Source: an uncultured delta proteobacterium
GTDB lineage: Bacteria; Desulfobacterota; Desulfobacteria; Desulfobacterales; UBA2156
DNA: 64,000 nt
NCBI GenBank assembly: GCA_963698465.1
Contig: CAVOQY010000013.1
Span: forward strand, 420,559 to 484,558
Direction of reading: 5' to 3'
Shown here one piece after another: positions 44,992 to 64,000 of this stretch. Each line of letters begins with the position of its first letter. The stretch's first letter is position 1. Under the pieces are notes generated by a model. That model had not been told where the DNA came from and ran no database searches. It was given only the letters and a program-made list of their open reading frames with translations. The position numbers and the translations under genes were made by a program.

Positions 44992-45110
44992 AGAAATCTT
45001 TACGGGCCACTTTCCTGATTTCCGAAACAGCCTCTTTGAACCTTTGGCAAGGTAATGGAGACCCTTTTCAAGCAAAGGCGTGCCTTAAAAAGAGTGTTGT
45101 AAAGGTCCAT

Positions 45111-46256: not shown

Positions 46257-46604
46257 TTCACACTTTTATTCGGCTCATTTTTTGAGGCGATAATAGACCA
46301 TAATTGACTCATTGGCAATGATTTTCTTAACGGTTATCCTCAGGTAAAAATATTCGAAAGTTACCCGGACACCTATGACCTTTAGTTCCTTCTGAAACTC
46401 TTGTTGGGCGATGATAGCCGAATTGCACCGCCGGTATCATGTCGAGGACGTTCCATCGAACAAACAAATTTTCGCTCTATCGGCCAAATTTTGGAATTCC
46501 GCCATCATGATATAGGGAACCTCTCGGTACCTTAACCCAACATATTGGTTCGGCACGGATATTGCTGTTGAAGTTCCTCCATCGGGAATCGAGGGGGAAT
46601 ATCC

Positions 46605-46775
46605 GTGCCCGCAGCCGTTTACCGTCCCCGAAAACCTCAGAACTCGCCGTATTACCAAAAAACCTGGTCGCGGCTGATCCAAAAGATCTGCGAAGTCGAT
46701 CCCTTAACCTGCCCCAAATGCCAGGGGAAAATGCGGGTGATCGCGTTTATTGAAGATCCGGAGGTGATCAAATGT
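46605..46775 (+). mobile_element. IS91-family transposase C-terminal remnant
   Basis: The translation ...TWSRLIQKICEVDPLTCPKCQGKMRVIAFIEDPEVIK resembles the conserved C-terminal zinc-ribbon tail of IS91-family transposases. No upstream catalytic part is present, and the surrounding DNA is AT-rich and non-coding. Confidence 0.55.
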
Positions 46776-47020
46776 GTATCGATTCATCCGAAGTGCACGG
46801 CAACGAAACGTTCCCATATCTTGGGGTGTAGACAGGGTCGGAACAGAATTCGTTTTCACACTCTATCCGCACCTAAAAAAGCGCTTTCTTATCATTTAGC
46901 ATCCGTTTCGAATCCGGCATTAATGGCGTGCCGGTTTTGTCCGGTCATTGAAGCACTTTGACTCACGCAACTTCCTCTACTTTCCTATATCGCGATTCAA
47001 TGATATATTATTGATAAAAA

Positions 47021-47539
47021 TCACTTCTTCCCTAAAATCTTATGGCGGTCGATGTGAAACAGGTTCAGTGAAAGGTCGGCGATTTCAGGTGCTTCGTTGA
47101 GCCAATGCCGTAAGTTTCCCAAAAGATTGGCGGCATAAGGATTCTGGCGGCCGTCGGCGAGCAGATAGTTGACCCACAACCCTTTTTTACGGGAAACCAC
47201 CAGGCCGGCTTCTTCCAGGATCTTCAAATGTTTGCTGGCGGTGGATTGCGCCGTTCCCAGGGCTGTATGAATCTCGCACACGCACATCTCCCGCTTTTCC
47301 AGCATCTTCAAGATCTTGACCCGGGTCGGATCGGACGCGGCCTTCATGACTTTTAAAAACAGTTTCACCCTAACCTCAATATCGTGTTTATGGAATATAT
47401 TAAACCGATCCGCCTTGTCAAGGTAAAATTTTTTCACAGCAGCCGGGGGCCCAATGCGAATGTTTTCTACCCAAGCCCAGCACCCTGCATTCTTTGATGA
47501 CGGCGATTCGGCATCCTGAAAGCCGTCGGCCTTGATCAT
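47021..47539 (-). CDS. ArsR/SmtB-family transcriptional regulator
   Basis: ASDPTRVKILKMLEKREMCVCEIHTALGTAQSTASKHLKILEEAGLV is a typical ArsR wHTH. The true start is uncertain; an internal ATG at 47347 would give 108 aa. Confidence 0.8.
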   Translation of the reverse strand: MIKADGFQDAESPSSKNAGCWAWVENIRIGPPAAVKKFYLDKADRFNIFHKHDIEVRVKLFLKVMKAASDPTRVKILKMLEKREMCVCEIHTALGTAQSTASKHLKILEEAGLVVSRKKGLWVNYLLADGRQNPYAANLLGNLRHWLNEAPEIADLSLNLFHIDRHKILGKK

Positions 47540-47621
47540 GATAGCGCCGGATTCGAACTTGCGGCTGACCCGGTTTGTGGGTTAGAAGAAAAGGAGATCA
47601 TCATTTGCCAGGGAGGGTGTT

Positions 47622-50081
47622 ATGCCCGATTCCAAAACCCGTATCGTTCGGACCACCACCTGGTCGCCCGGTCCCGGGTGCCATGGCGGCTGCGGGGTGC
47701 TGGCCCACGTCAAAGACGGAAAGCTCGTCAAGGTCGAGGGGGATCCCGATCATCCCTGGAACCGGGGCCGTCTGTGCGCCCGGGTCCTGGCCATGACCCA
47801 GTATGTCAACCACCCGGATCGACTCCGCCATCCCCTAAAGCGTATCGGAAAACGCGGGGAAGGGAAATGGGAGCGCATATCCTGGGAAGAAGCCCTCGAC
47901 TCCATCGAAAAAAAGATGAAGGCCATCCGGAAAAAGTTCGGGCCGGAAAGCATGGTCTTCAACGTGGGCACCGGAAGGGATATCTACCCCTGGGTCTGCA
48001 TGCTGGCCTATGCCTACGGAAGCCCCAACGTGATGTTCGGCCTTTCCGGACAGGCGTGCTACGGACCCCGCGTGTCCGCCGTGGTCACCGTGCAGGGGGA
48101 TTACGCGGTCTTCGATGCGGGCCAGTGGTTTCCCGCGCGCTATGAAGACCCCCGGCATCAAATCCCCGAATGCATGATCATCTGGGGTTACAACATCCAC
48201 GCCACGTGTCCGGACAACCTGTTCGGGCACTGGATCATCGACATGATGAAGCGCGGCACCCGCATCATCTGCATCGACCCCCGGCTCTCCTGGTTCGCCT
48301 CCCGCGCCAGGCACTGGCTGCGGCTTCGACCGGGAACCGATTCCGCACTGGTCATGGGATTTTTGAACGTGATCATCAAGGAAAACCGATACGATCAGCG
48401 ATTTCTCAAAAACTGGACCAACGCCGCCCACCTGGTTCGCACGGATACCGGAAAGCTTTTACGGGAAAGCGACCTTTTAAAAAGCGGGGCAAATATCCAT
48501 TTCGTCGCCTGGGATGCCAAAGCCCGAAAGCCTCTCATCTGGGACACCGCCCAAGTTGCATATCGTCAAAAGAACGCCAGACCCATGCTTTCCGGGTCCT
48601 GCGAAGTGAAACTGGCAAACGGAAAAACCGTCTCGTGCCATACGGCATGGGACGCCTTTTGCAGTCAAGTGGAAGCATATCCGTTGGACAAGGTTGAATC
48701 CATCACCGGCGTTCCAGCAGCCGATATCCGGGAAGCCGCACGTCTCTACGCCGATAGCAAACCGGCGGCCGTTCACTGGGGCGTCGCCGTGGACATGACG
48801 CCGGCGCTCACCCCGCTGGTCACGGGGATCACCGCACTGTGGGCGCTGACCGGGAACCTGGACGTTCCCGGGGGAAACGTGATCGCCCGATTCGCCTTCG
48901 ATGTCACCTCCTATGCCCTCCCCGGAACCAAAGGTCCCATCCGCCTAAAAAGCCCGGAACTCGACAAGCCCCGAATCGGCGCCGATCGATGCATGCCCCT
49001 CAACAAATTCTACTGGCGATGCCAGACCGACATGACCCTCGAGCAGATCTTTACGGAAAAGCCCTACCCCATCAAGGGAATGTGGATCCAGACCGCCGGT
49101 ATTTTGCAGGGGCTGGGCATGGATCCCAAACGCTGGCGCGAGGCATTGAAAAAACTCGATTTTATCGTGGCCGTCGACTTGTTTCATACTCCGACGACCC
49201 AGTACGCGGACGTGGTTCTCCCTGCCGCCAGCTTCCTGGAAAAAGACGGTTTCCGGAGCTGGTGGACCCCCCTTCAGAGCATCAACAGGGCCATAAAGGT
49301 CAAGGAATGCCGGCCCGATGTGGAAATCAATTTCGAGCTGGCAAAACGCTTCGACCCCGACTACAAATTCGAAACGATCTACGATCTTTTTGACGACATC
49401 CTCAAACCCGCGGGAATGACATTCGAAGAGCTCCAGGAGCAGGGTTGGGCATACCCTCCGGAAGGAAGCTCCAGCTGCCCTTACCTGCGACACGAAAAAG
49501 GGCTGCTTCGTCCGGATAAAAAGCCGGGATTCAGGACGCCCACCGGCCTGTTCGAGATTTACTCCACCCTCCGGGAGGAATGGGGGCTGGCGCCGGTTCC
49601 CCATCATGAGGAGCCCCCCTTTACTCCGGTGAGCCGACCGGATCTGGCCCGACAATATCCCTTGATCCTGTCGACAGGGAGACGCTCCCCCGCCTTTTTC
49701 CATTCCGAACATCGGAACATCCCCTGGCTGCGGGCATTGGATCCGGATCCCCTTGTGGAAATCCATCCCGATACCGCTCAAAACCACGGCATCGGCAACG
49801 GGGAGTGGGTGTGGGTGGAAAATTGGATGGGCCGGGTCAAGCTGAAGGCCAAAGTGACGCCGGTGGTGCCTCCATGGATGGTCATGGCCACCCACGGCTG
49901 GTGGTTCCCGGAAAAAGCCCCGGCCGAGCCTTCCCTTTTCGGCGTATGGGAGTCCAACATCAATCAATTGATTCCCATGGACCATCAGGGCAAGGACGGT
50001 CAGGGCGCCCCCATCAAACACAGCATGTGCAGAATTTACCGGGTCGGCGTGGAGGAAAAAAACGATGGCGAAAAAGCCTGA
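47622..50081 (+). CDS. Molybdopterin (Mo/W-bisPGD) oxidoreductase large subunit, cytoplasmic, substrate unknown
   Basis: 819 aa, GGGAGG RBS, no Tat signal. The N-terminal Cys pattern GCHGGCGV...C is atypical. Family body and C-terminal barrel are present (IHPDTAQNHGIGNGEWVWVEN). Confidence 0.85.
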   Translation: MPDSKTRIVRTTTWSPGPGCHGGCGVLAHVKDGKLVKVEGDPDHPWNRGRLCARVLAMTQYVNHPDRLRHPLKRIGKRGEGKWERISWEEALDSIEKKMKAIRKKFGPESMVFNVGTGRDIYPWVCMLAYAYGSPNVMFGLSGQACYGPRVSAVVTVQGDYAVFDAGQWFPARYEDPRHQIPECMIIWGYNIHATCPDNLFGHWIIDMMKRGTRIICIDPRLSWFASRARHWLRLRPGTDSALVMGFLNVIIKENRYDQRFLKNWTNAAHLVRTDTGKLLRESDLLKSGANIHFVAWDAKARKPLIWDTAQVAYRQKNARPMLSGSCEVKLANGKTVSCHTAWDAFCSQVEAYPLDKVESITGVPAADIREAARLYADSKPAAVHWGVAVDMTPALTPLVTGITALWALTGNLDVPGGNVIARFAFDVTSYALPGTKGPIRLKSPELDKPRIGADRCMPLNKFYWRCQTDMTLEQIFTEKPYPIKGMWIQTAGILQGLGMDPKRWREALKKLDFIVAVDLFHTPTTQYADVVLPAASFLEKDGFRSWWTPLQSINRAIKVKECRPDVEINFELAKRFDPDYKFETIYDLFDDILKPAGMTFEELQEQGWAYPPEGSSSCPYLRHEKGLLRPDKKPGFRTPTGLFEIYSTLREEWGLAPVPHHEEPPFTPVSRPDLARQYPLILSTGRRSPAFFHSEHRNIPWLRALDPDPLVEIHPDTAQNHGIGNGEWVWVENWMGRVKLKAKVTPVVPPWMVMATHGWWFPEKAPAEPSLFGVWESNINQLIPMDHQGKDGQGAPIKHSMCRIYRVGVEEKNDGEKA

Positions 50082-50406
50082 ATACGGCCTGTTGATCGAC
50101 TACGAATATTGCACGGGCTGCCTTGCCTGCCAGGTGGCCTGCACCCAGGAATATGGATGGGAGCCCGGCATGTCCGGCATGCGGGTCAACGAAATCGTCC
50201 AGCCCCTGCCACACAACAAGCACTATCTAACCTATCTGCCGTTTCCAACCGAGCTTTGCGTGCTGTGTCGTCCTCGGACCCGAAAAGGCCTTGAACCGGC
50301 CTGCGTCAAGCACTGCATGGCCGACGTCATCAAATGGGGACGCCTCGAGGACCTGTCCAGGGAACTGGGCACCAAGCCGCGGCTGGTCCTCTGGTCGCCC
50401 CGATAA
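50065..50406 (+). CDS. Small 4Fe-4S ferredoxin-like subunit (113 aa, 8 Cys)
   Basis: CTGCLACQVAC plus CVLC...CVKHC. GGAGG RBS and a 17-nt overlap with the large-subunit gene. Confidence 0.7.
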   Translation: MAKKPEYGLLIDYEYCTGCLACQVACTQEYGWEPGMSGMRVNEIVQPLPHNKHYLTYLPFPTELCVLCRPRTRKGLEPACVKHCMADVIKWGRLEDLSRELGTKPRLVLWSPR

Positions 50407-50429
50407 AGCGAAGCGACCTTAAGGGCCGG

Positions 50430-51611
50430 TCACTCGTTTAACAGGGTTCCGGGGAGGATGCTCTTATCCCCGAACTTTTCGTGCAGCGTGTCCAGGGTGA
50501 CATTCAACTTCTTTCTTTTTTCCAGGGTCTTGTCTATGGTGAAAAGGTCCAGCTGGATCCCGGTGGCAAGATGGCTGAGGTGGGACATCGACACGCCCAA
50601 CAACCGAACCGGCTTTTTGCCCAGTGCGGTTTTATTCGAGAGCCTGCAGACGATTTCGTAGAGGACACTGCCGTCATCCGTGGGATGCCCCAGAGTCTCG
50701 GACCGGGTGGCCATGACAAAGTCGGCATACTTGACCTTCAAGGTCACGGTCTTTCCTAAAACCCCGTATCTTCTTGCCCGCCGGGCGACCCGGTTTGAAA
50801 GCGACAGGAGTTCCCTCTTGGCGGTTTCAAGGTCTATGATGTCATGTTCGAAGGTCTCCTCGTGGCCGATGGATTTCATGTCATAATCGGCCACCACGTC
50901 CCGTTCATCCATGCCGGAGGCCAGCCGGTGCATCCGGGCGCCGTGTTTGCCGAATTTTCGCTCCAGAAATCCGACGGACGTGCGGCGCAAATCCGCAAAT
51001 GTCCGGATGCCGAGCTGTTTCAGGGCGGCCTGGGTCACCTTTCCCGCGCTCCACATTTTGTCGATGGGAAGGGGATCCAGGAAGGCCTGCTCTTCCCCGG
51101 GCGCCACCACGGTCAGCCCGTCGGGCTTATCCATGTCCGAGGCGATCTTCGCCACGAACTTGGAAGCCGCCGCACCGGCGGAAACCGTCAGCCCGCATTC
51201 GCTGACGATCGCCTTTTTTATTTTTTGGGCGATTTCCGTCGGCACCCCGAAAAGCCGCACCGAGGCGGTGACATCCAAAAACGCCTCGTCGATGGAGAGG
51301 GGCTCCACCAGGGGAGTGAATCGATAAAAAACCTCGAATATCCGGTTCGATACTTCCTTGTACCGCTGCATCCTCACCGGCAGCACCACGGCTTCGGGGC
51401 AAAGGCGCATCGCCGTTACCATGGGCTGGGCCGAGTGCACGCCGAACTTCCGCGCTTCATAGGATGCCGAGGAAACCACACCCCGCTTCCGGCTCCCGCC
51501 CACGATGACCGGCTTCCCCTTCAAGGCCGGGTCGTCCAACACCTCAACAGCCGGATAGAAGGCGTCCATATCCAGGTGAAGGATGCTTTTATAAAGGTTT
51601 GGATGTTCCAC
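50430..51611 (-). CDS. dinB: DNA polymerase IV (Y-family)
   Basis: LHLDMDAFYPAVE, KPVIVGG and SIDEAFLDVT motifs; 393 aa. Confidence 0.9.
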   Translation of the reverse strand: MEHPNLYKSILHLDMDAFYPAVEVLDDPALKGKPVIVGGSRKRGVVSSASYEARKFGVHSAQPMVTAMRLCPEAVVLPVRMQRYKEVSNRIFEVFYRFTPLVEPLSIDEAFLDVTASVRLFGVPTEIAQKIKKAIVSECGLTVSAGAAASKFVAKIASDMDKPDGLTVVAPGEEQAFLDPLPIDKMWSAGKVTQAALKQLGIRTFADLRRTSVGFLERKFGKHGARMHRLASGMDERDVVADYDMKSIGHEETFEHDIIDLETAKRELLSLSNRVARRARRYGVLGKTVTLKVKYADFVMATRSETLGHPTDDGSVLYEIVCRLSNKTALGKKPVRLLGVSMSHLSHLATGIQLDLFTIDKTLEKRKKLNVTLDTLHEKFGDKSILPGTLLNE

Positions 51612-51666
51612 CAGACAAATAGCAAGGAACGGTCAGGATTTCTGCAAAACGATTAGGCTGAACCCA

Positions 51667-51950
51667 TCAAGCGGGCGGCATGACCTGGGCTTCCCCTGAA
51701 AATACAATCTTCTGATCCTGATTGACGAAGACGGTTTCCATACGAACCCGATTCTTCTCTTTGAAGACTTCCAAGACTTTCAGTGTCAACGTGAGGGTAT
51801 CTCCGATAAAAACCGGGCGGAGAAACTTCATGGTCTGGGAGAGATAGATGGTTCCTTCTCCCGGAAATTGCATTCCGATCACCCCGGAGAGAATTCCTGC
51901 TGAAAGCATCCCATGGGCGACACGCTGCTTGAACAGGCTGTTTTTCGCAT
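51667..51950 (-). pseudogene. MaoC-like (R)-hydratase hot-dog domain gene, 5'-truncated at the repeat junction
   Basis: The in-frame translation DAKNSLFKQRVAHGMLSAGILSG...TLTLKVLE... covers only the C-terminal ~94 aa. The reading frame runs into repeat copy B at 51951. Confidence 0.7.
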
Positions 51951-52672
51951 CACATCGAAATTTTGTCCGAGCAATTCAGGGCCTACCAGGGGAAAGGCAA
52001 ATTCGACGCCGGCTGTCTTGCCGGAAGGCCCTCGGCAAAAATCGCCTCCGCGGTCTTCACTCCGGCGCTGTCCCGGAAGATCGATGCCGCGTCGTTTGAG
52101 GCGGCCGCCATTTCCGCGGCCATGGCCATGGAGGAAGCCGCCATCCGGCTTTACGCCGATCGCGCCAAGAAGACCCGAGACCGCCACGAGAAGGCCCTGT
52201 ACCGTTGGCTTGTCGAATGGGAAACCTCCCATCTCGAGATGCTCTCCAAAATCGATCAGGATCTCAAGGAGAGCATCTGGCACGACAACGCCTTCTGGCC
52301 GTTTTAGGAAAGCTGTCGCGGTTACCCCAAAAGGGACCTGGCGACGATCACTTTCTCCATTTCCCGGGTACCTTCGTATATCTCCAGGATCTTGGCGTCC
52401 CGGTACAGGCGCTGGACCTTGTACTCGTCGATATAGCCGTACCCGCCGTGCATCTGAAGGGCCTCGTCGGCGCACCGGACCGCCATCCGCGCACTGTACC
52501 ACTTGGCCATGGCCACCAGGGCATGATCGATCTTTCCCCGGTCGGCCTTCCAGGCCGCTTCGTAATAAAGGTTCCGGGCCGCCCGGATCCACGTGGCCAT
52601 TTCGGCGATCTTGAACTGGATGGCCTGGAAAGAGGCCAAGGGCTGTCCGAACTGCCTGCGGCCCTTGGCGTG
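51951..52672. repeat. Direct repeat copy B (right flank of the accessory segment; contains 270 bp absent from copy A)
   Basis: See copy A. Copy B begins abruptly at 51951 and is continuous with the intact acyl-CoA dehydrogenase gene. Confidence 0.9.
51963..52307 (+). pseudogene. 5'-truncated duplicate of the ferritin-like gene (last 114 codons)
   Basis: The translation differs from the C-terminal part of the 44392-44895 product at two residues (T/A, A/T). Only a TTG start is available and there is no RBS. Confidence 0.8.
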
Positions 52673-53464
52673 TCGGATGGACTCTTCGAGGGCGGCTCTT
52701 GCGAGTCCCACGGCCTGGGCGCAGATGTGCAGGCGCGTCCGGTTGAAAAAAGCCATGAGCTGATGAAATCCATCTCCCCGCTTTCCCACCAGGTTTTCAG
52801 AAGGCACCCGGACCCCCTTGAGGACGACTTCGGCCGTGTCCGAGGCCCGGATCCCCAACTTGCCTCGGATCTTGACGGCCTTGAAACCCGGCGCATCGGT
52901 TTGAACGAGGAAAAAGCTGTGCCGGTGGTGGCGAGAGGGGTTTTCCGGGTCGGTCAGGCAAAAAACCAGCAGGTGCCGGGCCAGGGTTCCGTTGGTAATG
53001 AACATCTTGGAACCATCGATGACCCACTGGTCGCCGTCCTCTACGGCGGAGGTGACAGCGGAACTGACGTCGCTTCCCGCATCCGGCTCCGTGATGGCGG
53101 TCCCAATGATGGCTTCCCCGGAAACGAGCCCGGGAAGGACCGTTTCCTTTTGTTTTTCGGTGCCGTAGAGAAGGAGCAGTTCGGAACCGAAAGTCGCCGA
53201 CAAGATGGCGGCTCCGATCCCCGGATCCGCGGCCCAGAACTCTTCGGCGATGAGACAGTGCTCAAAAAACCCGTATCCAGCCCCGCCGTATTTCTCATCG
53301 ATGTAGACGCCCACGAATCCTAAATCGCAGGCCTTTTTCCAAATCGACAAGTCAAACCGTTCCTCCCTGTCAAACACCGGGGCCATTTCCGTGAATTCCT
53401 TGACGGCGAACTCCCGGGCCGCTTTTTGAATCTCCTTCTGTTCACGTGTCAATTCAAAATCCAT
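52322..53464 (-). CDS. Acyl-CoA dehydrogenase
   Basis: 380 aa with the typical ACAD sequence (ITEPDAGSD, FITNG, QIHGGYGY-like MHGGYGYIDEY, YEGT). Confidence 0.9.
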   Translation of the reverse strand: MDFELTREQKEIQKAAREFAVKEFTEMAPVFDREERFDLSIWKKACDLGFVGVYIDEKYGGAGYGFFEHCLIAEEFWAADPGIGAAILSATFGSELLLLYGTEKQKETVLPGLVSGEAIIGTAITEPDAGSDVSSAVTSAVEDGDQWVIDGSKMFITNGTLARHLLVFCLTDPENPSRHHRHSFFLVQTDAPGFKAVKIRGKLGIRASDTAEVVLKGVRVPSENLVGKRGDGFHQLMAFFNRTRLHICAQAVGLARAALEESIRHAKGRRQFGQPLASFQAIQFKIAEMATWIRAARNLYYEAAWKADRGKIDHALVAMAKWYSARMAVRCADEALQMHGGYGYIDEYKVQRLYRDAKILEIYEGTREMEKVIVARSLLG

Positions 53465-55107
53465 CAGATCGCACTCCTTCTTTTTTCCTCGCTGCGGATT
53501 TCCCGTCGGAGCAGTTTCCCGACTTTCGATTTCGGGAGCATGTCTCTGAATTCGATGTAGTGCGGCACCTTATAAGAAACCAGGCTTTTCCTGCACCACT
53601 TGATGAGATCCTGTCCGGTGATTCCTTTGACGTCTTCTTTGAGCACCACGTAGGCCTTGATCCTCTCCCCCACCCGCTCGTCGGGGACGCCTACCACGCA
53701 GGAAGCCATCACCGCCGAATGCTCCTGCAGGGTGGTCTCGATTTCCGAGGCCGATACACGGTAGCCCTTGTGTTTGATGGTGTCGACGGTGCGGTCCACG
53801 AAGTAAAGGTATCCCTTTTCGTCCATGGACATGATGTCTGCGGTACGGTACCACATTTTTCCGTCTTTCTCGACAAACGCAGAGGCGGTTTCTTCGGGTT
53901 TGTTGAGGTAGGCCTTCACCATGTGCTCCGAAGAAACCCAGAGCTCTCCGGGCGCTCCGACTGCCACCGGGTCCAAAGTGGAAGGTTCCACGATGCAAAT
54001 CGTCTTGCTGGGTACCACCCGCCCCACGCTTTTTGGGGGGTTCTCGCGGTCTGTCGGACACATGGCCACCCCCCCGCAGGTCTCCGTGGCGCCGTAACCC
54101 TGGTGGATGACCCGGTTGAATCGCTCTTTCCATCGTTTTCCGATCTCCACGGGCAGGACATCCCCCCCGCTGAAGCAGTAGTCGATGGAACTCAAGTCGT
54201 ATTGATCGAGCCGGGGATGCTCCAGGATCATCCGGTAGAGCATGGGGACCCCGATCATGCTTTTCGCCTTGAACCTTTCGATGGCATCGAAAGCCGCATC
54301 CAGGTTGACCCGGGGCTGGATGATGAGGGTGCCTCCAAACAGAAGGGTGGACAAACTGCAGGTCTGGCCAAGGATGTGAAACAGGGGGGCGTTTCCCATG
54401 ATCACATTGTCTTTTGCCGGAAACATCGCATCGCTGATATGGATCTGCTCCTCGGCGGACGTTAAAAAAAGCGCGTGGGACAAGGGAACGCCTTTGGGAA
54501 ACTTGGTGGTTCCGCCGGTGTAAAGGATCTCCGCGGTTTGGGTCCCGCCCCTGCCGGGATCCGGCAGGGCAGACAAATCGGACAAACCCTGCGACAGCAG
54601 TTTCCGAAGAAAATGGACGGAGTTGAGCCTTTGGACCCTGCCCCTGGGCACTACGTCAAAGAGAAAGCCGAAGGCGCGCTTCCAGGCGGGCAACAGGTCC
54701 GCGAGGTTGGACACGATGACCGACCGAATGGCGGTTTCCGGAAGGACCTGCATCACATACCCGAAATTGGTGTCCATGCAGACGATGCACTCGGCGCCGC
54801 TGTCGTTGGCGATGTATTTCAGGTCGTGAGGCGTGTAGATGGGCGTTATGGGGACGGGGACGGCACCGAGGCGCTGAATGCCCAGCCACGACACCACCCA
54901 CTGGATGCTGTTGGGAAGATAAAGCACCACCTTGCATCCCGGCCCGACCCCGAGACGGGAAAGGGCAGAGGCAAACCGTGTCGCAAGCTCGATGACCCGG
55001 CCGTAGGAAAAGGAAGTCCCCAGATAGATGACTGCGGTCTTTTCGGTCCGCTTCGCGGCGGCGGCAAAGAAAACCGAAGCGATACTGTTAGGGTTTGAAC
55101 CGGTCAT
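53464..55107 (-). CDS. AMP-dependent acyl-CoA synthetase/ligase
   Basis: AMP-binding motifs ILYTGGTTKFPKGV, QGYGATE, YRTADI and PKSKVGKLLRRE. Confidence 0.9.
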   Translation of the reverse strand: MTGSNPNSIASVFFAAAAKRTEKTAVIYLGTSFSYGRVIELATRFASALSRLGVGPGCKVVLYLPNSIQWVVSWLGIQRLGAVPVPITPIYTPHDLKYIANDSGAECIVCMDTNFGYVMQVLPETAIRSVIVSNLADLLPAWKRAFGFLFDVVPRGRVQRLNSVHFLRKLLSQGLSDLSALPDPGRGGTQTAEILYTGGTTKFPKGVPLSHALFLTSAEEQIHISDAMFPAKDNVIMGNAPLFHILGQTCSLSTLLFGGTLIIQPRVNLDAAFDAIERFKAKSMIGVPMLYRMILEHPRLDQYDLSSIDYCFSGGDVLPVEIGKRWKERFNRVIHQGYGATETCGGVAMCPTDRENPPKSVGRVVPSKTICIVEPSTLDPVAVGAPGELWVSSEHMVKAYLNKPEETASAFVEKDGKMWYRTADIMSMDEKGYLYFVDRTVDTIKHKGYRVSASEIETTLQEHSAVMASCVVGVPDERVGERIKAYVVLKEDVKGITGQDLIKWCRKSLVSYKVPHYIEFRDMLPKSKVGKLLRREIRSEEKRRSAI

Positions 55108-55116
55108 AAGCGATTT

Positions 55117-55875
55117 CTAAAGGCCGAAATAAGCCGACTTGATTTCCGGGTTATCCATGAGTTGCTGCCCGGTTCCCTGAAGGGTCAGCATCCCGTTTTC
55201 CACCACGTATCCCCGGTCGATCACCGGGAGCACGGGTCGCGCGAACTGTTCGCTGAGTAGCACACTGATGCCGGTGTCCTCCTTCAACTTCACGACGGCG
55301 TCCACCAGGGTCCGCTGCATCAAGGGGCTCAACCCCAAGAGGGGTTCGTCCAACAACAGAAGTCTCGGCCCCACGACGAGGGCCATCCCGATGGCGAGCA
55401 TCTGCTGCTCCCCCCCGCTCAAAAAGCCCGCCTTCCGGTGCCTGAGGTCCGACAGGGGTGGAAAAAGGGCATAGGCCCTTTCAACCCCCTGGGCGATCTG
55501 GGACCGGGAGCGCAGGTAGCCGGCGATCTTCAGATTTTCCAGGACGCTGCTTTCCGGAAAAACCGGGTGCCGCTCCCGGGAAAGAACGATACCCTTTCGG
55601 ACACGCCGGCTCGGGGGTGTCTCGGTGATGTCTTCTCCGTCGAAAAAAATCTTTCCGTAAAGCGTGATGCGCTCCCCTCCCCGGCGCTTCTCCTTGACGC
55701 GCATGTGGATGATCAATCCGGACAGGGCGTTCATCAACGTCGTCTTCCCCGCGCTGTTGGACCCGATGACCCCCACCCGCTCTCCTTCGTTCACATGCAG
55801 GCTGAGATCGTTGATGGCCAAGGCGTTTTCGAAAAAGACCATCAGGTTTTTCACTTCCAGCAACATGGAGGTCAT
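55117..55875 (-). CDS. livF: Branched-chain amino acid-type ABC transporter ATP-binding protein
   Basis: GSNSAGKTT, LSGGEQQMLAIGMAL, LLLDEP. Operon position after livG. Confidence 0.8.
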   Translation of the reverse strand: MTSMLLEVKNLMVFFENALAINDLSLHVNEGERVGVIGSNSAGKTTLMNALSGLIIHMRVKEKRRGGERITLYGKIFFDGEDITETPPSRRVRKGIVLSRERHPVFPESSVLENLKIAGYLRSRSQIAQGVERAYALFPPLSDLRHRKAGFLSGGEQQMLAIGMALVVGPRLLLLDEPLLGLSPLMQRTLVDAVVKLKEDTGISVLLSEQFARPVLPVIDRGYVVENGMLTLQGTGQQLMDNPEIKSAYFGL

Positions 55876-56621
55876 TCCGCTCCCAGGTAGGCTTTTTTCA
55901 CTTCCGCACTTTCCATCACCTCGGAGGCGTTCCCTTCGGCGATCTTGTGCCCGTAATTGAGAACGAGGACCCGGTCGGCGATGCGGAAAAGCTCTTTCAG
56001 CCGATGCTCGATCATGATGATCGTCTTTCCTTGATGGCGAAGCTTTTCAATGACGGGGACGATCCCCGCCACCTCGGCGAGGCTGAGTCCCGAAAAGAGC
56101 TCGTCCAAGATCATCAGTTCCGGATTCAGGGCGATGGATTTGGCCAGTTCGAGGCGCTTAAGGTATCCCTGGGGGAGCGCTCCGGCACTTTTGTAGGCCA
56201 CCATGGAATCCCGTTCGAAGCCGACTTCTTCCAAAAGGTCCAGGGCCACGGCATCCCTGTCCCCGTACTTCCCTCCCAGCATTCCTTTGACCCGGGGGGA
56301 ATACAAGGGGATGATCATGTTCTTGAACGCCGGCAACTGGTAGAACGGTTTGACCATTTGAAAGGTCCGGCTGATGCCCAGCCGGACGATCCGGTGAACG
56401 GACATGCCGGTGATGTCTTTGCCCTTAAAGGAGATTTCCCCCTCGGTGGGCTTCACGAAACCGGTGATCAGGTTCACGGCCGTCGTTTTTCCGGACCCGT
56501 TGGGGCCGATGAGGCCCAAAAGCTCCCCCCGGTCCAGGGAGAAGCTCAAATCGCTGATGGCCTGGACCCCGCCGAAGTTTTTGTAGAGCCCCGAGACCTT
56601 GAGAATAGGCTCCGAGCCCAT
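55872..56621 (-). CDS. livG: Branched-chain amino acid-type ABC transporter ATP-binding protein
   Basis: ORF opens at 56786. The ATG at 56621 (MGSEPILKVSGLYKNFGG) overlaps the livM stop by 1 nt. GPNGSGKTT and the LivG-type insert are present. Confidence 0.8.
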   Translation of the reverse strand: MGSEPILKVSGLYKNFGGVQAISDLSFSLDRGELLGLIGPNGSGKTTAVNLITGFVKPTEGEISFKGKDITGMSVHRIVRLGISRTFQMVKPFYQLPAFKNMIIPLYSPRVKGMLGGKYGDRDAVALDLLEEVGFERDSMVAYKSAGALPQGYLKRLELAKSIALNPELMILDELFSGLSLAEVAGIVPVIEKLRHQGKTIIMIEHRLKELFRIADRVLVLNYGHKIAEGNASEVMESAEVKKAYLGAE

Positions 56622-57622
56622 CACTCGACCTCCACCCATCGCTCGAACTGGTGGTATTTTCGCTGGATGTAATGAAAGAGCCCTTCCGGAAGCCCGACGA
56701 TGAAGACCACCAGAAACAGCCCGTACAAAACGATGCGCAGCCCCCCGATGCCCCTGAGGATCTCCGAGAGCGGCACGAGAATGCATGCCCCCAGGGTGGC
56801 ACCGGCCAGGGTTCCGGGTCCTCCCACCACCGCGGCGGCGATGGGCAGAATCGAATAATCCAGGGCGAATACGGGCATTCCCACGAACATGTACACATGG
56901 GTCATGAACGCGCCCGAAAAGGCGCCGATGCTGCTTGCAATAAAAAGCGCCTGGGCCTTGAAGCCATAGATGTTGATCCCGGCGTTCATGACGGAACGGT
57001 CATTGTCGGCGATCCCCTTGAGGACCAGTCCGTAATCGGAATCCATCATCCGCCTAAACCCGAAAAGCGCCCCCAAAAGGACGAAAGCCACCAGATAAAT
57101 CTCCATCCAGCCCGACGCCAGGGGCTCGATGCCGCTGAGACCCTCGGTGCCGCCGAAAACCTTGGTGGCTTCCACGATGCGTACCAGCATCAGGGGGATG
57201 ATCAGCGTGACCATGGAGAAGTAGACCCCCCGGAGCCTGAGAACCGGCAGGAGAAAAACGGTGCAGGCGAGCCCGCCGATCCCCGTGGCCGCCGGAATGG
57301 CGATCAAAGGGTGCCACTCGAAATAGTGGTTCAGGATACCGGAAGCATACGCGCCGGTACCGAAAAACAGGGCCTGGCCCAGGGAGATCATCCCGGCCTG
57401 GGCGAGGATGTCCCAGCTGATGGCCAAAAGCGCAAAAACGGCCACCGACAAGAAGACCTTCTGCCAGTAGGCATTGAAAAACAGAGGCAAAAACAAGAAA
57501 AGCAAAACCGGAAACAGGCGGGGCGCGGAGAGATAAAGCATTTCGCGCCAGGAAGTCACGGCGAAAACATCGTTCGCCCGGACCTTGATCCCCCGGTCCA
57601 GCCGTTCTTTACGCTTGGGCAA
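56621..57622 (-). CDS. livM: Branched-chain amino acid-type ABC transporter permease
   Basis: 333-aa polytopic LivM-like permease. Confidence 0.8.
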   Translation of the reverse strand: MPKRKERLDRGIKVRANDVFAVTSWREMLYLSAPRLFPVLLFLFLPLFFNAYWQKVFLSVAVFALLAISWDILAQAGMISLGQALFFGTGAYASGILNHYFEWHPLIAIPAATGIGGLACTVFLLPVLRLRGVYFSMVTLIIPLMLVRIVEATKVFGGTEGLSGIEPLASGWMEIYLVAFVLLGALFGFRRMMDSDYGLVLKGIADNDRSVMNAGINIYGFKAQALFIASSIGAFSGAFMTHVYMFVGMPVFALDYSILPIAAAVVGGPGTLAGATLGACILVPLSEILRGIGGLRIVLYGLFLVVFIVGLPEGLFHYIQRKYHQFERWVEVE

Positions 57623-57626
57623 GCGT

Positions 57627-58499
57627 TTAAATCCTTTCTTCCAGTTCTTTCTGTTTCCCGAAAAGGCCCGAGGGCTTCACGACGAGTACCACCAGGATCG
57701 CCGCCAGGGAGATGATCATGGTCCAGTGGGATCCGACATACGTGTCCGTGAAGCGCTCGGCGAAACCGACGATGAAACTGGCCACGATGACGCCCCCTGT
57801 GCTTCCCAGTCCTCCGATGATGCAAACGGCCAGCGCCTTGATGAGCACTTCGTATCCCTCCCCCGGCGAGATGCTGCCCAGAGGGATGATGATGACGGCG
57901 GCGACGGCGGCCAGACCACACCCCATGGCCACGCTGAGCATCCCGATCCAGTCCGAATCGATCCCCAGGGTGAGGGCGGTGCGCTCGTCCTGGGCGATGC
58001 CTCGAAAGGCAAGCCCCAGGGCGGTGTGATGGGTAAAGATCCAAAGACCGGCCACAATGAGGATGCCGGCAAAGACGATGACCAACCGCTGGGCGTCGAC
58101 ATAGGTTCCCGCGATGATGTAACTCTTATCGATGAAGACCGGGAGCGTATATTCGAACCCGATGAACCCGAGGTGCCGGAAAAGCTCCAGGATGGCCAGT
58201 CCGATCCCGAAGGTCGCAATGACTTCCGAGAGAGCCTGACCGCGGACCCGCAGCAAAACGAACCGGTACATGAGGGCCCCCAAAGCCGCGGAAAATACGA
58301 TGGAAGCCAGGATGGAAACGAAAAGCGGGACGTGCACGAGGTTGATGAGAATCCAGCACGTGTACGCCGCAAAGATATACATGGCGCCGTAGGCAAAGTT
58401 GGCCACGCCGCTGATGCCGAAGGTCAGGTTGAACCCCACGGCCATCAGAGCAAGAATGACGCTGTTGATCAAGGCATAAACAACGGTGCCCAAAAACAT
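57627..58499 (-). CDS. livH: Branched-chain amino acid-type ABC transporter permease
   Basis: 290-aa polytopic LivH-like permease. Confidence 0.8.
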   Translation of the reverse strand: MFLGTVVYALINSVILALMAVGFNLTFGISGVANFAYGAMYIFAAYTCWILINLVHVPLFVSILASIVFSAALGALMYRFVLLRVRGQALSEVIATFGIGLAILELFRHLGFIGFEYTLPVFIDKSYIIAGTYVDAQRLVIVFAGILIVAGLWIFTHHTALGLAFRGIAQDERTALTLGIDSDWIGMLSVAMGCGLAAVAAVIIIPLGSISPGEGYEVLIKALAVCIIGGLGSTGGVIVASFIVGFAERFTDTYVGSHWTMIISLAAILVVLVVKPSGLFGKQKELEERI

Positions 58500-58632: not shown

Positions 58633-59922
58633 CTATTTCAGTGACTTCAGCCCTTTGGGAAGCAAAATCTTGGCATCGGCGACGGACTGGGGAAAGACGA
58701 TCTGGCGCTTTCCGTCCTCCGTCCACTGGAACACGGCGGCGACCGCCGTCTCCTTGGGATCGAACCCGTACACGACCTGATGCCCCTCGTCGTATTTGAT
58801 GCGCCCCATGACCCCCATCCGATCCGTTTTTTTCAGCTGGGCCACGATGGCGTCCGCATCGAGGCTTCCCGCCCGCTCGATGGCCTCCGCCAGGACATAG
58901 ACCGACTCATAAGATGGAGCAGGGCCGTGGCCGGCTTGAAGCGCCTTGCCGTAAGCCTTTTCATACCTGCCGAAGAACTCCACGGACTGCGGAATCTTGT
59001 CCGAGGCGATGGCGCTTCCCATCTCGAAAATGGAGTTGATGGCACCCCCGATTTTTCCGTCGAAGGTCTTCCAGGCTTCGGATCCGGCAAGGGGAGAGAT
59101 GAATCCCGCCATCAGGGCGGGTACCTGCATGGATTTCCACTGCTTGACGAGGGTGCCGCTCTGGGGCATGTCGAAGATGGGCATGATCACCTGGGCCCCT
59201 TTGGCTCTGGCCTTCATGAGGCCCGAGGAGAAATCCGAGGTTCCGGTGGGATAGGCCTCTTCCTCCAGCACCTCCCATCCGGCCTTCTCGAAGTACATCT
59301 TCTTCACGAAATCGGCGGTGGCTCTTGCCCACGCCACGTCCTGGAACATGACGTACACTTTGGTGAACCCGAACTGCTCGTTGATGAGGCCCATGGTCCC
59401 GGCCAGGTATTTGACCAGGTGTACGGCGTTGAGGCAGGTCCGGAAGACATATTTGTACTTCTCCGGATCTTCCTTGATCTTGCTTCTCGGATCCGGGGCT
59501 CATGGCGATGGTTCCCAGCATGGGGACCTTGTACTTGGCCATGATGTCCATCCCGGCGATCAGGGCCTCGGAACGGAACGGGCCCACCACGATGGCGGCC
59601 GGTTTTTTCTCGAGAATGATCTTTTCCAGTCCCAGCAGCGCTTCCGGGTACCGGAACGCCCGGGGGCCGCATCCCGAATATCAAGGGCTTCCACCTTGAG
59701 CAGGCGTTTTTCGCTTCCCACTTTGACGCCGCCTTTGGCGTTGATCTCGCTCGACCGCCATCTCGACGGCCTTGTGGGACTCGGTCCCTTCCAGAAAACC
59801 GAGGGAAGTCGGAACGCCGATGACGATCGGTTCCGCGGCGTCCGCCGGGCAGGGAAGTCGTCCACACAGGCAGACGGTCCGGACACTGGATGTCAACAGT
59901 TTCGTCGGCAGGAGACCACCAT
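58633..59922 (-). pseudogene. LivK-type ABC substrate-binding protein gene, N-terminal third disrupted by at least 3 frameshifts (or sequence errors)
   Basis: The C-terminal 253 aa are intact (58633-59394). Upstream, the protein-like sequence hops frames: AEPIVIGVPTSLGFLEGTESHKAVEMAV | EINAKGGVKVGSEKRLLKVEALDIRDAAPG | YPEALLGLEKIILEKKPAAIVVGPFRSEALIAGMDIMAKYKVPMLGTIAMSP | DPRSKIKEDPEKYKYVFRTCLNAVHLVKYLAGT. The shifts are near 59750, 59662-59666 (G5) and 59495-59498 (G4). The start is uncertain. Confidence 0.75.
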
Positions 59923-60068
59923 CCGGGGGCACTTCCGTTCGAGCAAGGACGGCGGCTCCGAACGTGAACAGGTTTTGGGCCGGTGAAAAGGGTGCATTGG
60001 ATGACCTTACGGATTCCAGGGCCTCGTCTACTTCTTCACTCGAAATCGGGATCGTTTCATTCGAACAC

Positions 60069-61265
60069 CTATCCGACTGACCAGCGAGGCGCCGCCGGTG
60101 TCGCCCGCGGCGCACCCGGCAAAGAGCACGTATCCGCCGCCCTTGAAGGACCGTCTCCTCGATGCCCTCGATGATCAGCCGCCCGGCCGTGGGTGCCTGG
60201 GGATGGCCGAAGACCAGGGAGCTGCCGTAGTTGTTGAATCCGTTGACATCGATTCCGATCTGCTTGGCAAGGTAAATGTCGTTGGCGGCAAAGGGATTGT
60301 GGGTCTTGATGACCTTGACGTCGTCTATGGAGATGCCCGCTTTTTCCAGGGCCATGTGGGCGGCCGGCACCACGGCCATGGCCATGAAGCCCTTTTTGGC
60401 CCGGGCGTAGCCGTAGGAGACGACCTGGATCTCCGTTGCCGGGTCCGGGCTGAGTTCCTTGGCCTTTTCCCGGGTGGTGACCATCGAGGCCGCAGTTGCC
60501 GTCGGCCGGATGGGTCTGGGACCCGAAGGTGTGGACGCCTCCGGGAATCACCGGCTCTGAGGCCCGCCAGCCCCTCGGCGGTGGTGGGCATGATCCCCTC
60601 GTCGGCCTCCAGGGTGATGGTTTTCTTCTTGGACACCTGCACCTCCACGGGAAACATGTAGCGCTTCTGGAAGGCCCGGTCGTCGGCCAAGCGCGTCCTT
60701 GTACTGCTCGTAGCGCCTGAGGGCCACGGCGTCGCATTGCTCCCGGGTGATCCCGGCTTCCTGGACCACGTTCTCGGCGGTTTGGATCATGGCGTTTCTG
60801 GCCCAGGGGTCGCGGCCGAAATGGTCCATGATCCAGTTTTCGCAGAGCACCTGCCCGCCCGGGACCGTTGGGATTGGGCCATACCGTGTGGGGGCCGTTG
60901 GAACACCGGTCGGCTGGCCAGGGCCCAGGCAGTTGCGGTACATCCCGGTTTCCACGCCCACGGCCGCCTGGAAGATGCAGGTGGTCGAGGTGGTGCAGGC
61001 CTGGCTGATGATCATTCCCGGGGTGTTCCGCGCACCGATGAGGGCCGAAGCCCAGGGGCTGCCGTAGAACCATCTGGGGCTGGCCGATGGTCATCCCGAG
61101 AAACACGTAGTCGATGGTGGTGGGGTCCCACCCCTTTTCGGCGAAAAACCGTTTGGAGGTCTCGGCCCCCAGGATCACGGCGTTGTCGTTGGCCAGGGTG
61201 CCCTGCCACCGGGCGAACGGGGTGCTGTAATAGCCTCTGTAGGGAATGAACGCTTGGGTCAACAT
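60069..61265 (-). pseudogene. Thiolase-family acetyl-CoA C-acyltransferase gene with about 7 frame changes (or sequence errors)
   Basis: ATG at 61265 after an AGGAGA RBS (MLTQAFIPYRGYYSTPFARWQG...). Thiolase-like segments are spread over all three frames (WFYGSPWASALIGARNTPGMIISQACTTSTT; ADRCSNGPHTVWPNPNGPGG; QVLCENWIMDHF...YEQYKDAL; ADDRAFQKRYMFPVEV...; VIPGGVHTFGSQTHPADGNCGL; VTTREKAKEL...NNYGSSLVFGHPQAPTAGRLIIEG; GGGYVLFAGCAAGDTGGASLV). The 3' end is uncertain. Confidence 0.7.
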
Positions 61266-61345
61266 GTACGGTTCTCCTGTTGGTGTTGAGGTTGGATTAA
61301 AAACCTCGCGGTTACGGGCAGCCCAGCTGCTCGATTCTGTCTTTT

Positions 61346-62905
61346 TCAGCTTGCGATGCAGAGAATCATTCCCGTAGGCGTCCTGGGCTTTCGTCGGCGT
61401 TTTGAGGAAGATCACCTCGTTGGGTCGGTTTATAACCCGGCCATCTTTCCGTTCGGCAGCTCCAGGATCGTCCTCGTCGATCAGATTTCCTCCGGCCTTG
61501 TAGCCGCCGGGTTTCGGCACCACAACTCGGCGATGACCTTTTCCCCCCCACTTTTCGGTCGGGAAGGCCGATCACAGGCGCAGTCGAAGACCGCATTCGT
61601 GGCTGCCCACCACCTCCTCGACCTCGCTGGGATAGACGTGTTCCCCGCCGGTGATGATCATGTTGTCCTTTCGGTCGACGATCTCGTAGATATCCGTCCG
61701 GATCTCTCCGGGCCATGTCGCCGGCGGAAAACCACTCCCCCGGAAAGAAGTCGGCCGTCTTTTCCGGCAGCTTGTAGTACCCGTCGAACAGCATGGGCCC
61801 CTTGGAGTAGAGCTCGCCGACCTCGCCGGCGGGCACGTCGTTTCCCTGGTTGTCGAGAATCTTCACGAAGTCCGTTCCCAGAGATCTCGTAGCCGATGGA
61901 GCCGAGCTTGCGCATCTGATCCCGGGCTTGAGAATGGTGACGATGCCGGCCTCGGTGGAACCGTAGCCTTCGTAGAGCTCCACGCCCGGGAAGAAAGTCC
62001 ATGATGGCCAGCTTCATGCTCTTTCGCACCGGCGCCGACGAACACAGCAGCTTGTTGATGGAACCCACGTCCCGTTTCCGGGCCGCCTTCGGAGACGTTC
62101 GAGAATGAGGTTGTAATGGGTGGGGATCAGGGAGATGAAGGTGATCTTTTCCGCGCTCGATGATTTCCAGGATCTCCTCCGCCCGGAACGACTGGGCCGG
62201 GTGAATGTACACGGTGGCGCCGATGTAGGTGAAGGTAAAGGTGAAAAGGTGGAATTGATGTGGCAAAGGGGCATGACGTTGAGACAGATGTCGTGCTCGG
62301 TGAAGCCGAAATCGACGGCATTGATCAGGTAGAACGCGATATGGGAGCGTGGGAACGGATAACGCCCTTGGGCCTTCCCGTGGTGCCGGAGGTATAGATC
62401 AGGATCCAGGTGTCTTCAGGATTCGACCTCGGCTTCCGGTTCGTCCTCCGGATCGTCGGCAATCGAGGTCCTCGTAGGACCGGTATCCCGGCTTTGCCTC
62501 CCCCACGACCCATACGCTCCGGCGGGATGGCGGGAAGCTGCTCCTTCAGCGGTTCCACCGTGTGGACGAACTCGTCGTGGACGATGAGGGCCGTGGCATC
62601 CGAGTTGTTCCAGGATGTAGGCCACTTCCTGGCCCACCAAGCGGAAGTTGATGGGGACGATGATCAGTCCCGGTCTTGGCGCGGGCCAGGTAGACTTCCA
62701 CGATCTCGATGCTGTTTTCCATCAGGACAGCCACCTTGTCCCCCTTGGAAAGCCCCATCCCGAAAAGAGCGTGGGCCAGCCGGTTCACCCGGTTGTTGAC
62801 CATGGGATAGGTGAGGCTCCGGTGGGCGTCTTTGAGGGCGACGGTGCCGGGATATTTTTTGGCATTGAGTTTTAAATGCTGTCCCAGGTTCATCCAAGGC
62901 GCCAT
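61346..62905 (-). pseudogene. AMP-dependent acyl-CoA ligase gene with multiple frame changes (or sequence errors)
   Basis: ATG at 62905 (MAPWMNLGQHLKLNAKKYPG...). Ligase motifs are scattered over different frames (LIYTSGTTGRPKGV, YEGYGSTEAG, WFSAGDMARRDPDGY, tail ...PRTPTGMIL). The stop assignment at 61346 is tentative. Confidence 0.65.
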
Positions 62906-62918
62906 ATCGTACCCCCCT

Positions 62919-64000
62919 TTACTTCACGCGGATCCGCGCATCGGCGACGGCGAACGCCCCGTCTTCATAGGCGATAATCGGATTCAGGTCCATCTCGAGG
63001 ATCCCGGGCGCATCCGACACCAGCCTGGAAACCCTAAGAAGCAGGTCTTCTAGGGCCTTCCGGTCGACGCCCTTCTGCCCCCTGACCCCTGTCAGCAGCG
63101 TCTTCCCTTGATGGAGGAAAGCATTTCCCCGGCCTCCGCTGTGGTCAAGGGGGTCAGATTGAAGACCACATCCTTCATGACCTCCACATAGATGCCTCCG
63201 AGCCCGAACATGACAATGTGGCCCAACCCCTCTTCGGCCTTGGCGCCCACGATCACCTCCAAGCCCTCGGGCAGATGTTTCTGGATGAAAAAGCGCAGAT
63301 CCTTTGCCTTGAGGCGCTGTTGCATGTCAGTGACCGCCGCACGGACGGCCTCTGCGTCTTTGAGGTCCAGCTTGACTCCGCCCATGTCGCTCTTGTGGAT
63401 GACGGACGGGGCGTCCGCCTTCACCACCACCGGATATCCGATGGCGTCGGCGGCCTTCACCGCCTCCCCGGCATCGCCCGCCACGCGCCAAGGTGCCACG
63501 GGGATGTTATACGCCTCCAGGATGCGGTAGACGTCGTCGGAGGCCGAAAAACGCGTCCGCCGCTGTCTTGCGCAGGATATCGCCGGCGGTCTTGGCGTCG
63601 ATATCCGAAAAGGACGGAATTTGTCCTGGATCCCTTTTTCTCAAGGCATCGTACCGCACCAGGGCCGTCATGGCCCGGGCCGCGGCACCCGGAAGGCTGA
63701 AGCAAGGCACCCCACCTTCCTGGAGGATCCGGACCACTTCCGTCCACTGCCGGCGATCCGTCATGAGGTTGCAGACGATGGGCTTCTTCTGCTTCGCGCT
63801 GACGGCCACGATTTCCCTGGCAATGCTTTCGTTGTCCACGAAGAAGGGGGTGACGAAATTGACGAAGATGCAGTCGAAATTATCGTCATCCAACATGGCG
63901 TCCATACACGCACGGTAATGGCCTGCAGTGGCCGTGGCAAGGACATCCACGGGATTTCGAACCGAGGCTTCCGGATACAGCTTTTCCTTGAGGATTGCCT
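62919..64000 (-). pseudogene. ADP-forming acyl-CoA synthetase (CoA-binding + ATP-grasp type), 5'-partial at the window edge, with at least 2 frame changes
   Basis: The segments ...DNFDCIFVNFVTPFFVD...KKPIVCNLM..., ...YNIPVAPWRVAGDAGEAVKAADAIGYPVVVKADAPSVIHKSDMGGVKLDL... and the tail ...KTLLTGVRGQKGVDRKALEDLLLRVSRLVSDAPGILEMDLNPIIAYEDGAFAVADARIRVK* lie in different frames. The shifts are near 63105 and 63550. Confidence 0.65.

Follow-up and report, generated by a model that had tools for sequence, protein, structure and literature searches.

Residual frameshifting indels are documented in long-read genome and metagenome assemblies, in which the residual errors are mainly ones of homopolymer length (bioRxiv 10.1101/2021.08.23.457338; PMC9262707; PMC8812927). 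Such errors are the subject of proovframe (bioRxiv 10.1101/2021.08.23.457338), of Sereika et al. 2022 (PMC9262707), and of Polypolish (PMC8812927). The damage described here resembles these errors in that one-base indels disrupt ORFs that relatives retain intact, in genes of any function and across the whole assembly, in that the indels are concentrated at sites of poor depth or polishing (contig ends), and in that duplicate loci disagree. Unlike in the documented cases, however, about two thirds of the insertions have no identical neighbour, insertions outnumber deletions by about 4:1 with G and C dominant, and the errors form discrete patches of 1–4 kb rather than being evenly spread. In true gene decay, such as that in Mycobacterium leprae or recent host-restricted symbionts, nonsense and missense mutations and deletions are also found, gene boundaries are followed, and essential genes are spared.

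The window (that is, the whole stretch of 64,000 nucleotides that was analysed) belongs to a 3.55-Mb draft assembly, in 15 contigs, of an uncultured Desulfobacterales-type bacterium and contains the following features.

62922..64000, minus strand: 3′ two thirds of a predicted ADP-forming acyl-CoA synthetase gene (CoA_binding_2, Succ_CoA_lig, ATP-grasp_5)
61341..62905, minus strand: predicted AMP-binding acyl-CoA ligase gene (orthologue, 519 aa), with about 22 private indels at 61364-62665
60079..61265, minus strand: predicted thiolase gene (Thiolase_N and Thiolase_C; orthologues, 396-403 aa), with 8 private +1 insertions between 60144 and 61071
58636..59870, minus strand: predicted Liv-type periplasmic binding protein gene (Peripla_BP_6), with private insertions at 59482, 59659, and 59749
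59482..63555, minus strand: probable error patch, with 34-37 private non-3n indels (about 29 insertions and 7 deletions; MAFFT alignment)
57627-58499, minus strand: livH, intact ORF
56621-57622, minus strand: livM, intact ORF
55872-56786, minus strand: livG, intact ORF
55117-55875, minus strand: livF, intact ORF
53464-55107, minus strand: downstream AMP-ligase gene, intact ORF
52322-53464, minus strand: acyl-CoA dehydrogenase gene, intact ORF
50430-51611: Y-family polymerase gene

The identities of the four genes touched by the patch are predicted from their Pfam domains, which were scored on the intact orthologues of genome G001, the window's corrected translations being 72–87% identical to those. 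These domain sets are PF00108 and PF02803 for the thiolase, PF00501 and PF13193 for the AMP-binding ligase, PF13380, PF13607, and PF13549 for the ADP-forming acyl-CoA synthetase, and PF13458 for the Liv-type binding protein. In the orthologous operons of the same-genus genomes and of one same-family genome, the corresponding genes are intact ORFs of 692 (synthetase), 519 (ligase), 396-403 (thiolase), and about 426 aa (binding protein). All 120 of the public thiolase relatives listed are likewise 396-403 aa long. A search of the public protein collection for a near-identical intact thiolase from the same species yielded no such direct error-free reference, the best match being only 81% identical. 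As a side observation, the ligase and the thiolase are unusually divergent from their same-genus orthologues (72–80% aa identity), and the start of the binding-protein gene is uncertain, with 48 and 54 extra nt in the window near 59904-60006.

When intact orthologous proteins from two same-genus genomes were searched against the window by tblastn, each of the four genes was found to be split across different minus-strand frames. MAFFT DNA alignments of the window with four orthologous loci in one run, and with three in another, then located, in the stretch of about 4.07 kb from 59482 to 63555, 34-37 non-3n indels that only the window carries: 3 in the binding-protein gene, 8 in the thiolase gene, about 22 in the AMP-ligase gene, and 2 in the C-terminus of the synthetase. 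The two synthetase events are both deletions, of 2 nt at 63555 and of 1 nt at 63108; the gene extends beyond the window as far as 64997 and keeps a single frame for its first 484 codons, everything upstream of 63556 being in that frame. At the other edge, the stretch 58636-59481 of the binding-protein gene is clean. The edges of the patch are sharp and both lie inside genes, without regard to operon structure, as judged from the orthologue alignment. Counted per 500 nt from 64.0 down to 59.0 kb, the indels number 1, 1, 3, 7, 8, 7, 5, 2, 2, and 1, a bell-shaped density that resembles a coverage trough and in which the AMP-ligase gene is the densest part.

The coding sequence that flanks the patch, about 8 kb aligned likewise, showed no private non-3n indel, and the small events outside the patch (n = 10) all lie in intergenic or poorly aligned stretches. 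The difference between 34-37 events in 4.07 kb and none in the flank corresponds to roughly P = 1e-17 (binomial split). An ab initio frame-switch detector delimited nearly the same patch (C13:480039-484095) and counted 24 same-strand frame switches in it, or 5.9 per kb, versus 0.44 per kb in the remaining 59.5 kb of the window. After removal of the private indels, no in-frame stop was found in about 1350 codons of the four genes; the synthetase and the AMP-ligase, projected in this way, are 87% (to the G001 orthologue) and 80% identical to their orthologues, respectively. None of the orthologues carries any of the private indels.

These results agree with most of what an initial annotation had read in the window: four frameshifted operon genes, with at least 3 hops in the binding-protein gene, about 7 in the thiolase gene, several in the ligase gene, and at least 2 in the synthetase gene; no nonsense codons in the correct frames; and a local indel density that stands out from the rest. 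The downstream genes that it had described as intact, from livH to the acyl-CoA dehydrogenase gene, are indeed single ORFs with the expected Pfam domains. They belong to the same gene string as the patch (52322..58499, minus strand) and provide a clean contrast to it.

The spectrum of the indels is distinctive. About 80% are +1 insertions, the ratio of insertions to deletions is about 4:1, and the inserted bases are G or C in about 75% of cases. The initial annotation had associated several of the shifts with short G/C runs, an association that does not hold: of 24 one-base insertions, 14 adjoin no identical base and just 5 fall within runs of at least 3. Homopolymer errors were therefore rejected as the main cause, most insertions being outside runs. 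No common motif was found at the roughly 35 shift sites. With respect to substitutions, the private rate in the synthetase C-terminus is 4.8% within the patch versus 5.2% in the flank. At the conserved first and second positions of codons, private substitutions are in two-fold excess. A reading of this excess as substitution noise was considered and rejected, since it is limited to the ligase and the thiolase, is absent from the synthetase part of the patch, and brings no stops; it more likely reflects natural divergence of these two genes. Comparison with the orthologues, which the initial annotation had proposed for separating indels from substitutions, thus indicates that the noise consists of indels only, the substitution excess tracking two genes and not the patch.

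Patches of this kind recur elsewhere in the genome. A longest-ORF scan proved too blunt, the window patch being absent from its 60 lowest bins, and a hexamer-Viterbi detector was used instead. Over the whole assembly it yielded 59 frame-switch clusters covering 79.7 kb, isolated single switches being left aside because the detector is too noisy to tell a frameshift from a gene junction at such sites. Clusters longer than 0.6 kb contain 3–9 switches per kb, and the patches are scattered over all large contigs. The outermost 10 kb of the contigs make up only 7.3% of the genome and contain 17 of the 59 clusters, a four-fold enrichment; where contig ends overlap, they do so at 94–98% identity and with a gap roughly every 75 nt. 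Three further patches checked by orthologue alignment share the spectrum of the window patch, being rich in insertions and in G/C and not tied to homopolymers.

C14:789970-793760: further patch
C14:337790-345900: further patch
C8:271759-273547: patch in leuS, with 17 private insertions and 0 deletions

Patch GC content is 60.4%, compared with 56.6% for the genome, a difference that may arise in part because the detector favours coding sequence and that is given no weight here. Operons of the liv/AMP-ligase type harbour all four of the largest patches, a non-random placement that consensus error does not account for.

Essential genes are among those affected. Both leuS (TIGR00396) and nrdJ, the gene for a B12-dependent ribonucleotide reductase (NF006417, 969 bits) whose cluster was seen with the detector and the family models, are readable only via about 10 or more frame hops, and no second copy of either was found in the assembly. 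Since the only copies of leuS and nrdJ are broken, a cell of such genotype could not live; and since such patches break essential genes, an artefact is almost certain, rather than biology. We conclude, with high confidence, that the frameshifts in the window are consensus errors of the deposited assembly, which has the properties of a noisy one of the long-read type, and not mutations in the organism. This is in line with the explanation ranked first in the initial annotation, a local drop in sequence quality, which is now favoured by the sharp intragenic edges, the approximately 58 similar patches, the damage to leuS and nrdJ, the contig-end enrichment, and the discordance between duplicates described below.

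An artefact of another kind was also considered, in which reads of two co-existing strains or of diverged gene copies were merged in a single consensus and polishing yielded a mosaic containing additional bases at sites of haplotype difference; it appears unlikely, though it deserves some weight. The assembly does hold unmerged strain-level duplicates: one 7.3-kb locus, other than the window patch, is present three times and provides the test of copy disagreement, with 6 private indels in the C6 copy, 33 in C11, and 27 in C8, and with 373 substitutions in these 7.3 kb private to C8 relative to C6 and C11. Mixing would also accord with the location of the largest patches in a multi-copy operon family and with the distance of the ligase and thiolase from their same-genus orthologues. 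On the other hand, C11 has only 60 private substitutions relative to C6 but 33 private indels, and noise therefore arises without haplotype mixing. Furthermore, leuS and nrdJ show the same pattern though single-copy. A search of the genome itself for a close paralogue near enough to co-align with the window patch returned only other matches of at most about 140 nt at 73–92% identity; the collapsed paralogue suggested in the initial annotation was accordingly rejected, the patch being without another long match.

The second explanation in the initial annotation, genuine decay that has very recently struck the 5′ part of the operon by indels alone, is very improbable; a tract of error-prone repair synthesis, with or without DinB, would be one conceivable mechanism. 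The deposited sequence does carry the indels, catabolic operons with many paralogues are dispensable, and, as in the pseudogenes of decaying genomes, there are several frameshifts per still recognisable gene. Unlike in such pseudogenes, however, the window genes, once corrected, contain no stops and show no patch-wide substitution excess, the patch edges ignore operon structure, and damage of like spectrum and density recurs in the other patches, leuS and nrdJ included; enrichment at contig ends and disagreement between copies of one locus also speak against decay. As for the speculative link to dinB, a Y-family polymerase gene is indeed present 8 kb from the patch, a feature shared with DinB (Pol IV) frameshift mutagenesis, but the signature cited for this enzyme, −1 frameshifts in runs, is the reverse of the mostly +1 insertions outside runs seen here. 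DinB mutagenesis was rejected on this spectrum together with the genome-wide spread of the patches. An even slimmer chance attaches to a variant in which the indels are real and belong to a natural Desulfobacterales population with kilobase-sized, insertion-biased (+1, G/C) tracts and almost no substitutions, as if left by error-prone long-patch repair synthesis, the broken essential genes coming from non-viable or relic DNA that was co-assembled.

Expression of the genes despite the indels, by programmed recoding (ribosomal frameshifting, transcript slippage, or editing), can practically be dismissed. The absence of stops in the corrected frames is the one observation in its favour; no motif is common to the roughly 35 sites in 4 kb, none of which has a counterpart in any orthologue, and we know of no bacterial recoding system at such density.

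If the frameshifts are consensus errors, the data used to build or polish the consensus over about 4 kb (59.48–63.56 kb) would have been insufficient in amount or quality, and this may have left a spurious base about every 110 nt, in most cases an added G or C, with the highest density midway along the stretch. The genes for the binding protein, thiolase, AMP-ligase, and synthetase would most likely be intact single ORFs of about 425, 396, 519, and 692 codons, respectively, in the cell. Low depth or failed polishing as the cause, and a noisy platform of the long-read type, are our suggestions; because the insertion-rich, G/C, non-homopolymer spectrum differs from the classic nanopore pattern of homopolymer deletions, both platform and failure mode remain guesses.

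The finding has practical weight for annotation and no biological weight. The 59 patches, about 80 kb in total, make about 2% of the draft unreadable unless frames are corrected, and automatic annotation will therefore give many false pseudogenes and split genes, among them leuS, nrdJ, a formate dehydrogenase gene, and several liv/AMP-ligase operons. Until the assembly is re-polished, any other frameshift, pseudogene, or recoding finding made in this genome is best discounted. Overall, the four window genes are best treated as an intact string for the uptake of an organic acid, its activation with CoA, and thiolytic cleavage.

The draft genome, in which the window occupies C13:420559-484558, comprises 3.55 Mb in 15 contigs with 57% G+C, and its relatives are uncultured Desulfobacterales or 'delta proteobacterium' MAGs. 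In three genomes of the same genus (G001, G003, and G004) and one of the same family (G007), the four ORFs that are disrupted in the window patch (59482-63555, minus strand) are intact and in unchanged order:

ADP-forming acyl-CoA synthetase, minus strand, reaching 64997, past the window end; orthologue 692 aa (CoA_binding_2, Succ_CoA_lig, ATP-grasp_5); codons 1-484 share one frame
AMP-binding ligase, minus strand; orthologue 519 aa
Thiolase, minus strand; orthologues 396-403 aa
Peripla_BP_6 binding protein, minus strand; orthologue about 426 aa

Comparison of the orthologous proteins with the window by tblastn split each of the four genes into two or three frames, and MAFFT DNA alignments with four and three orthologous loci showed 34-37 private indels—that is, indels absent from the orthologues—with lengths not a multiple of three, confirming the frameshift-dense stretch described in the initial annotation. 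The binding-protein gene contained 3 of these indels, the thiolase gene 8, the ligase gene about 22, and the C-terminal part of the synthetase gene 2, in agreement with the frame hops counted there, and none of the downstream genes (livH, livM, livG, livF, AMP-ligase, and acyl-CoA dehydrogenase) is broken, as had been stated. In the 13.3-kb alignment shared with the patch, 10 small private indels were present beyond the patch, each of them intergenic or in unalignable sequence; thus, the flanking coding sequence, about 8 kb in total, contained none relative to the orthologous loci. Counted in 500-nt bins running from 64.0 down to 59.0 kb, the indels (1, 1, 3, 7, 8, 7, 5, 2, 2, 1) form a bell-shaped profile with both ends within genes.

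The 29 one-base events in the patch comprise 24 insertions and 5 deletions, with G or C as the inserted base in 18 insertions. No identical neighbouring base was present at 14 of the 24 insertions, and only 5 were in runs of at least three. Thus, short G/C runs, previously suggested as shift sites, account for few sites, and homopolymer errors do not hold as the main cause. A collapsed paralogue, also suggested, is not supported: elsewhere in the same genome, the patch matches only stretches of up to about 140 nt with 73-92% identity. The proposed link to dinB was borne out as regards the presence of the gene (PF00817), but the observed spectrum is the reverse of the DinB signature cited, −1 frameshifts in runs. 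The 'inserted segment' to which that gene had been assigned is probably a lower-GC stretch (50-54%) at 44000-52000, which contains:

45111-46256, Fic/DOC protein
47021-47539, ArsR-type regulator
47622-50081, molybdopterin oxidoreductase
50430-51611, Y-family polymerase gene (dinB)

Elsewhere in the window, a 407-aa aldo/keto-reductase ORF (20144-21696, minus strand) has a profile match limited to positions 23-204 of 291 and is overlapped by a 349-aa ORF in a different frame; a single frameshift could account for this, as could a C-terminal extension with no relation to aldo/keto reductases.

After projection onto the G001 reading frames, with private insertions removed and deletions filled as N, all four genes contained zero stop codons, in line with the earlier reading, and amino acid identity to G001 was 87% for the synthetase, 80% for the ligase, 72% for the thiolase, and 86% for the binding protein. 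Private substitutions within the patch showed a two-fold excess at conserved first and second codon positions, located in the ligase and thiolase genes and absent from the synthetase part, where they amounted to 4.8% versus 5.2% in the flank. Substitution noise was rejected because the excess is confined to these two genes and stop codons are absent; the excess reads better as natural divergence of the two genes, and the best public thiolase relative is only 81% identical. Thus, when indels and substitutions are counted against the orthologous operons, as had been proposed, the patch-specific damage is essentially indels alone. The lower identity of the frame-corrected thiolase and AMP-ligase at 60079-62905 relative to the flanking synthetase and binding protein (86-87%) may reflect either faster evolution or replacement. 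In addition, stretches of 15, 6, 48, and 54 nt that are extra relative to all orthologues are located at 59850-60080, after the thiolase stop codon and before the sequence for the mature binding protein, which makes any start and signal peptide assigned to the binding-protein gene tentative.

Genome-wide recurrence was assessed using a hexamer coding model trained on long ORFs of the genome, with direct same-strand frame switches counted along a seven-state Viterbi path (non-coding and six frames). In the patch, 24 switches were counted over 4.06 kb (5.9 per kb), versus 0.44 per kb, mainly true gene junctions, in the remaining 59.5 kb of the window. Fifty-nine clusters of at least 4 switches were found, totaling 79.7 kb (2.2% of the genome), with 3-9 switches per kb in those longer than 0.6 kb, a length ceiling of about 3-4 kb for the longest, and a GC content of 60.4% versus 56.6% for the genome. 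Seventeen of the 59 are no more than 10 kb away from a contig end, versus 7.3% of the genome, a four-fold enrichment. Examples are as follows:

C8:327315-330810, C11:7068-10470, C14:995472-997680, and C14:700278-701964, from the frame-switch detector
C14:789970-793760 (cluster C14:789969-793713), 22 insertions and 3 deletions, one-base private, from orthologue alignment
C14:337790-345900 (cluster C14:337785-345648), 39 insertions and 9 deletions, one-base private, from orthologue alignment
C8:271759-273547 (cluster C8:271752-274473), leuS, 17 private insertions (13 one-base, 4 two-base) and 0 deletions, from orthologue alignment

All three further patches aligned with orthologues share the G/C-rich, non-homopolymer spectrum. 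The four largest patches, including the window patch, C14:337785-345648, and C14:789969-793713, are all in paralogous liv-type ABC transporter/AMP-ligase operons, which hold 20% of patch bases versus 3% of the genome. This placement is non-random, and its cause might be strain-variable loci where supporting reads are few or in conflict.

Genes under patches were identified by frame-stitched translations, in part with NCBIfam confirmation. Those broken include leucine-tRNA ligase leuS (TIGR00396) and B12-dependent ribonucleotide reductase nrdJ (NF006417; 969 bits versus a cut-off of 961), neither with a second copy in the genome, as well as a formate dehydrogenase alpha subunit (fdhA-like), glycerol kinase glpK, 2-oxoacid:ferredoxin oxidoreductase, and an IS21 transposase. 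A cell whose sole leuS requires 17 frame corrections is not viable; thus, the deposited sequence of that patch cannot be the genotype. Recent indel-only decay, the second explanation in the initial annotation, is contradicted by this recurrence in essential genes, the enrichment at contig ends, the intragenic patch edges, and the lack of stop codons, and is highly improbable.

Redundant contig ends, unmerged duplicates of the same loci, provide an internal replicate, with overlaps at 94-98% identity in which gaps occur about once every 75 nt:

C4 end (C4:532276-540354) with C9 start (C9:1-8087)
C9 end (C9:21472-27930) with C12 start (C12:1-6479)
C6 end (C6:37318-44522) with C8 end (C8:322445-329700) and C11 (C11:3388-10592)

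A 7.3-kb locus with rumA-rarD-nhaD-like genes is present in three copies, and their three-way alignment gave 6, 33, and 27 private indels and 12, 60, and 373 private substitutions for C6, C11, and C8, respectively. The C11 copy is near-identical to C6 plus indel noise, and the C8 copy is a diverged strain copy, likewise noisy, showing that the assembly process itself produces such indels. The approximately 5% substitutions in the C8 copy suggest that the bin contains a second strain, consistent with a 2.2% contamination estimate. Strain mixture in the consensus is possible as a trigger of the patch, but leaves the single-copy genes and the C11-C6 comparison unexplained.

Thus, the window patch is very probably a local consensus failure, one case of a genome-wide class, and the local drop in quality initially preferred was correct in substance, with patches recurring genome-wide, essential genes included. 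The assembly would be of the noisy long-read type, with depth, platform, and polishing history as we infer them. The observation is confirmed, yet is no real biological feature, and frameshift, pseudogene, and recoding calls in this genome are meaningful only after re-polishing.
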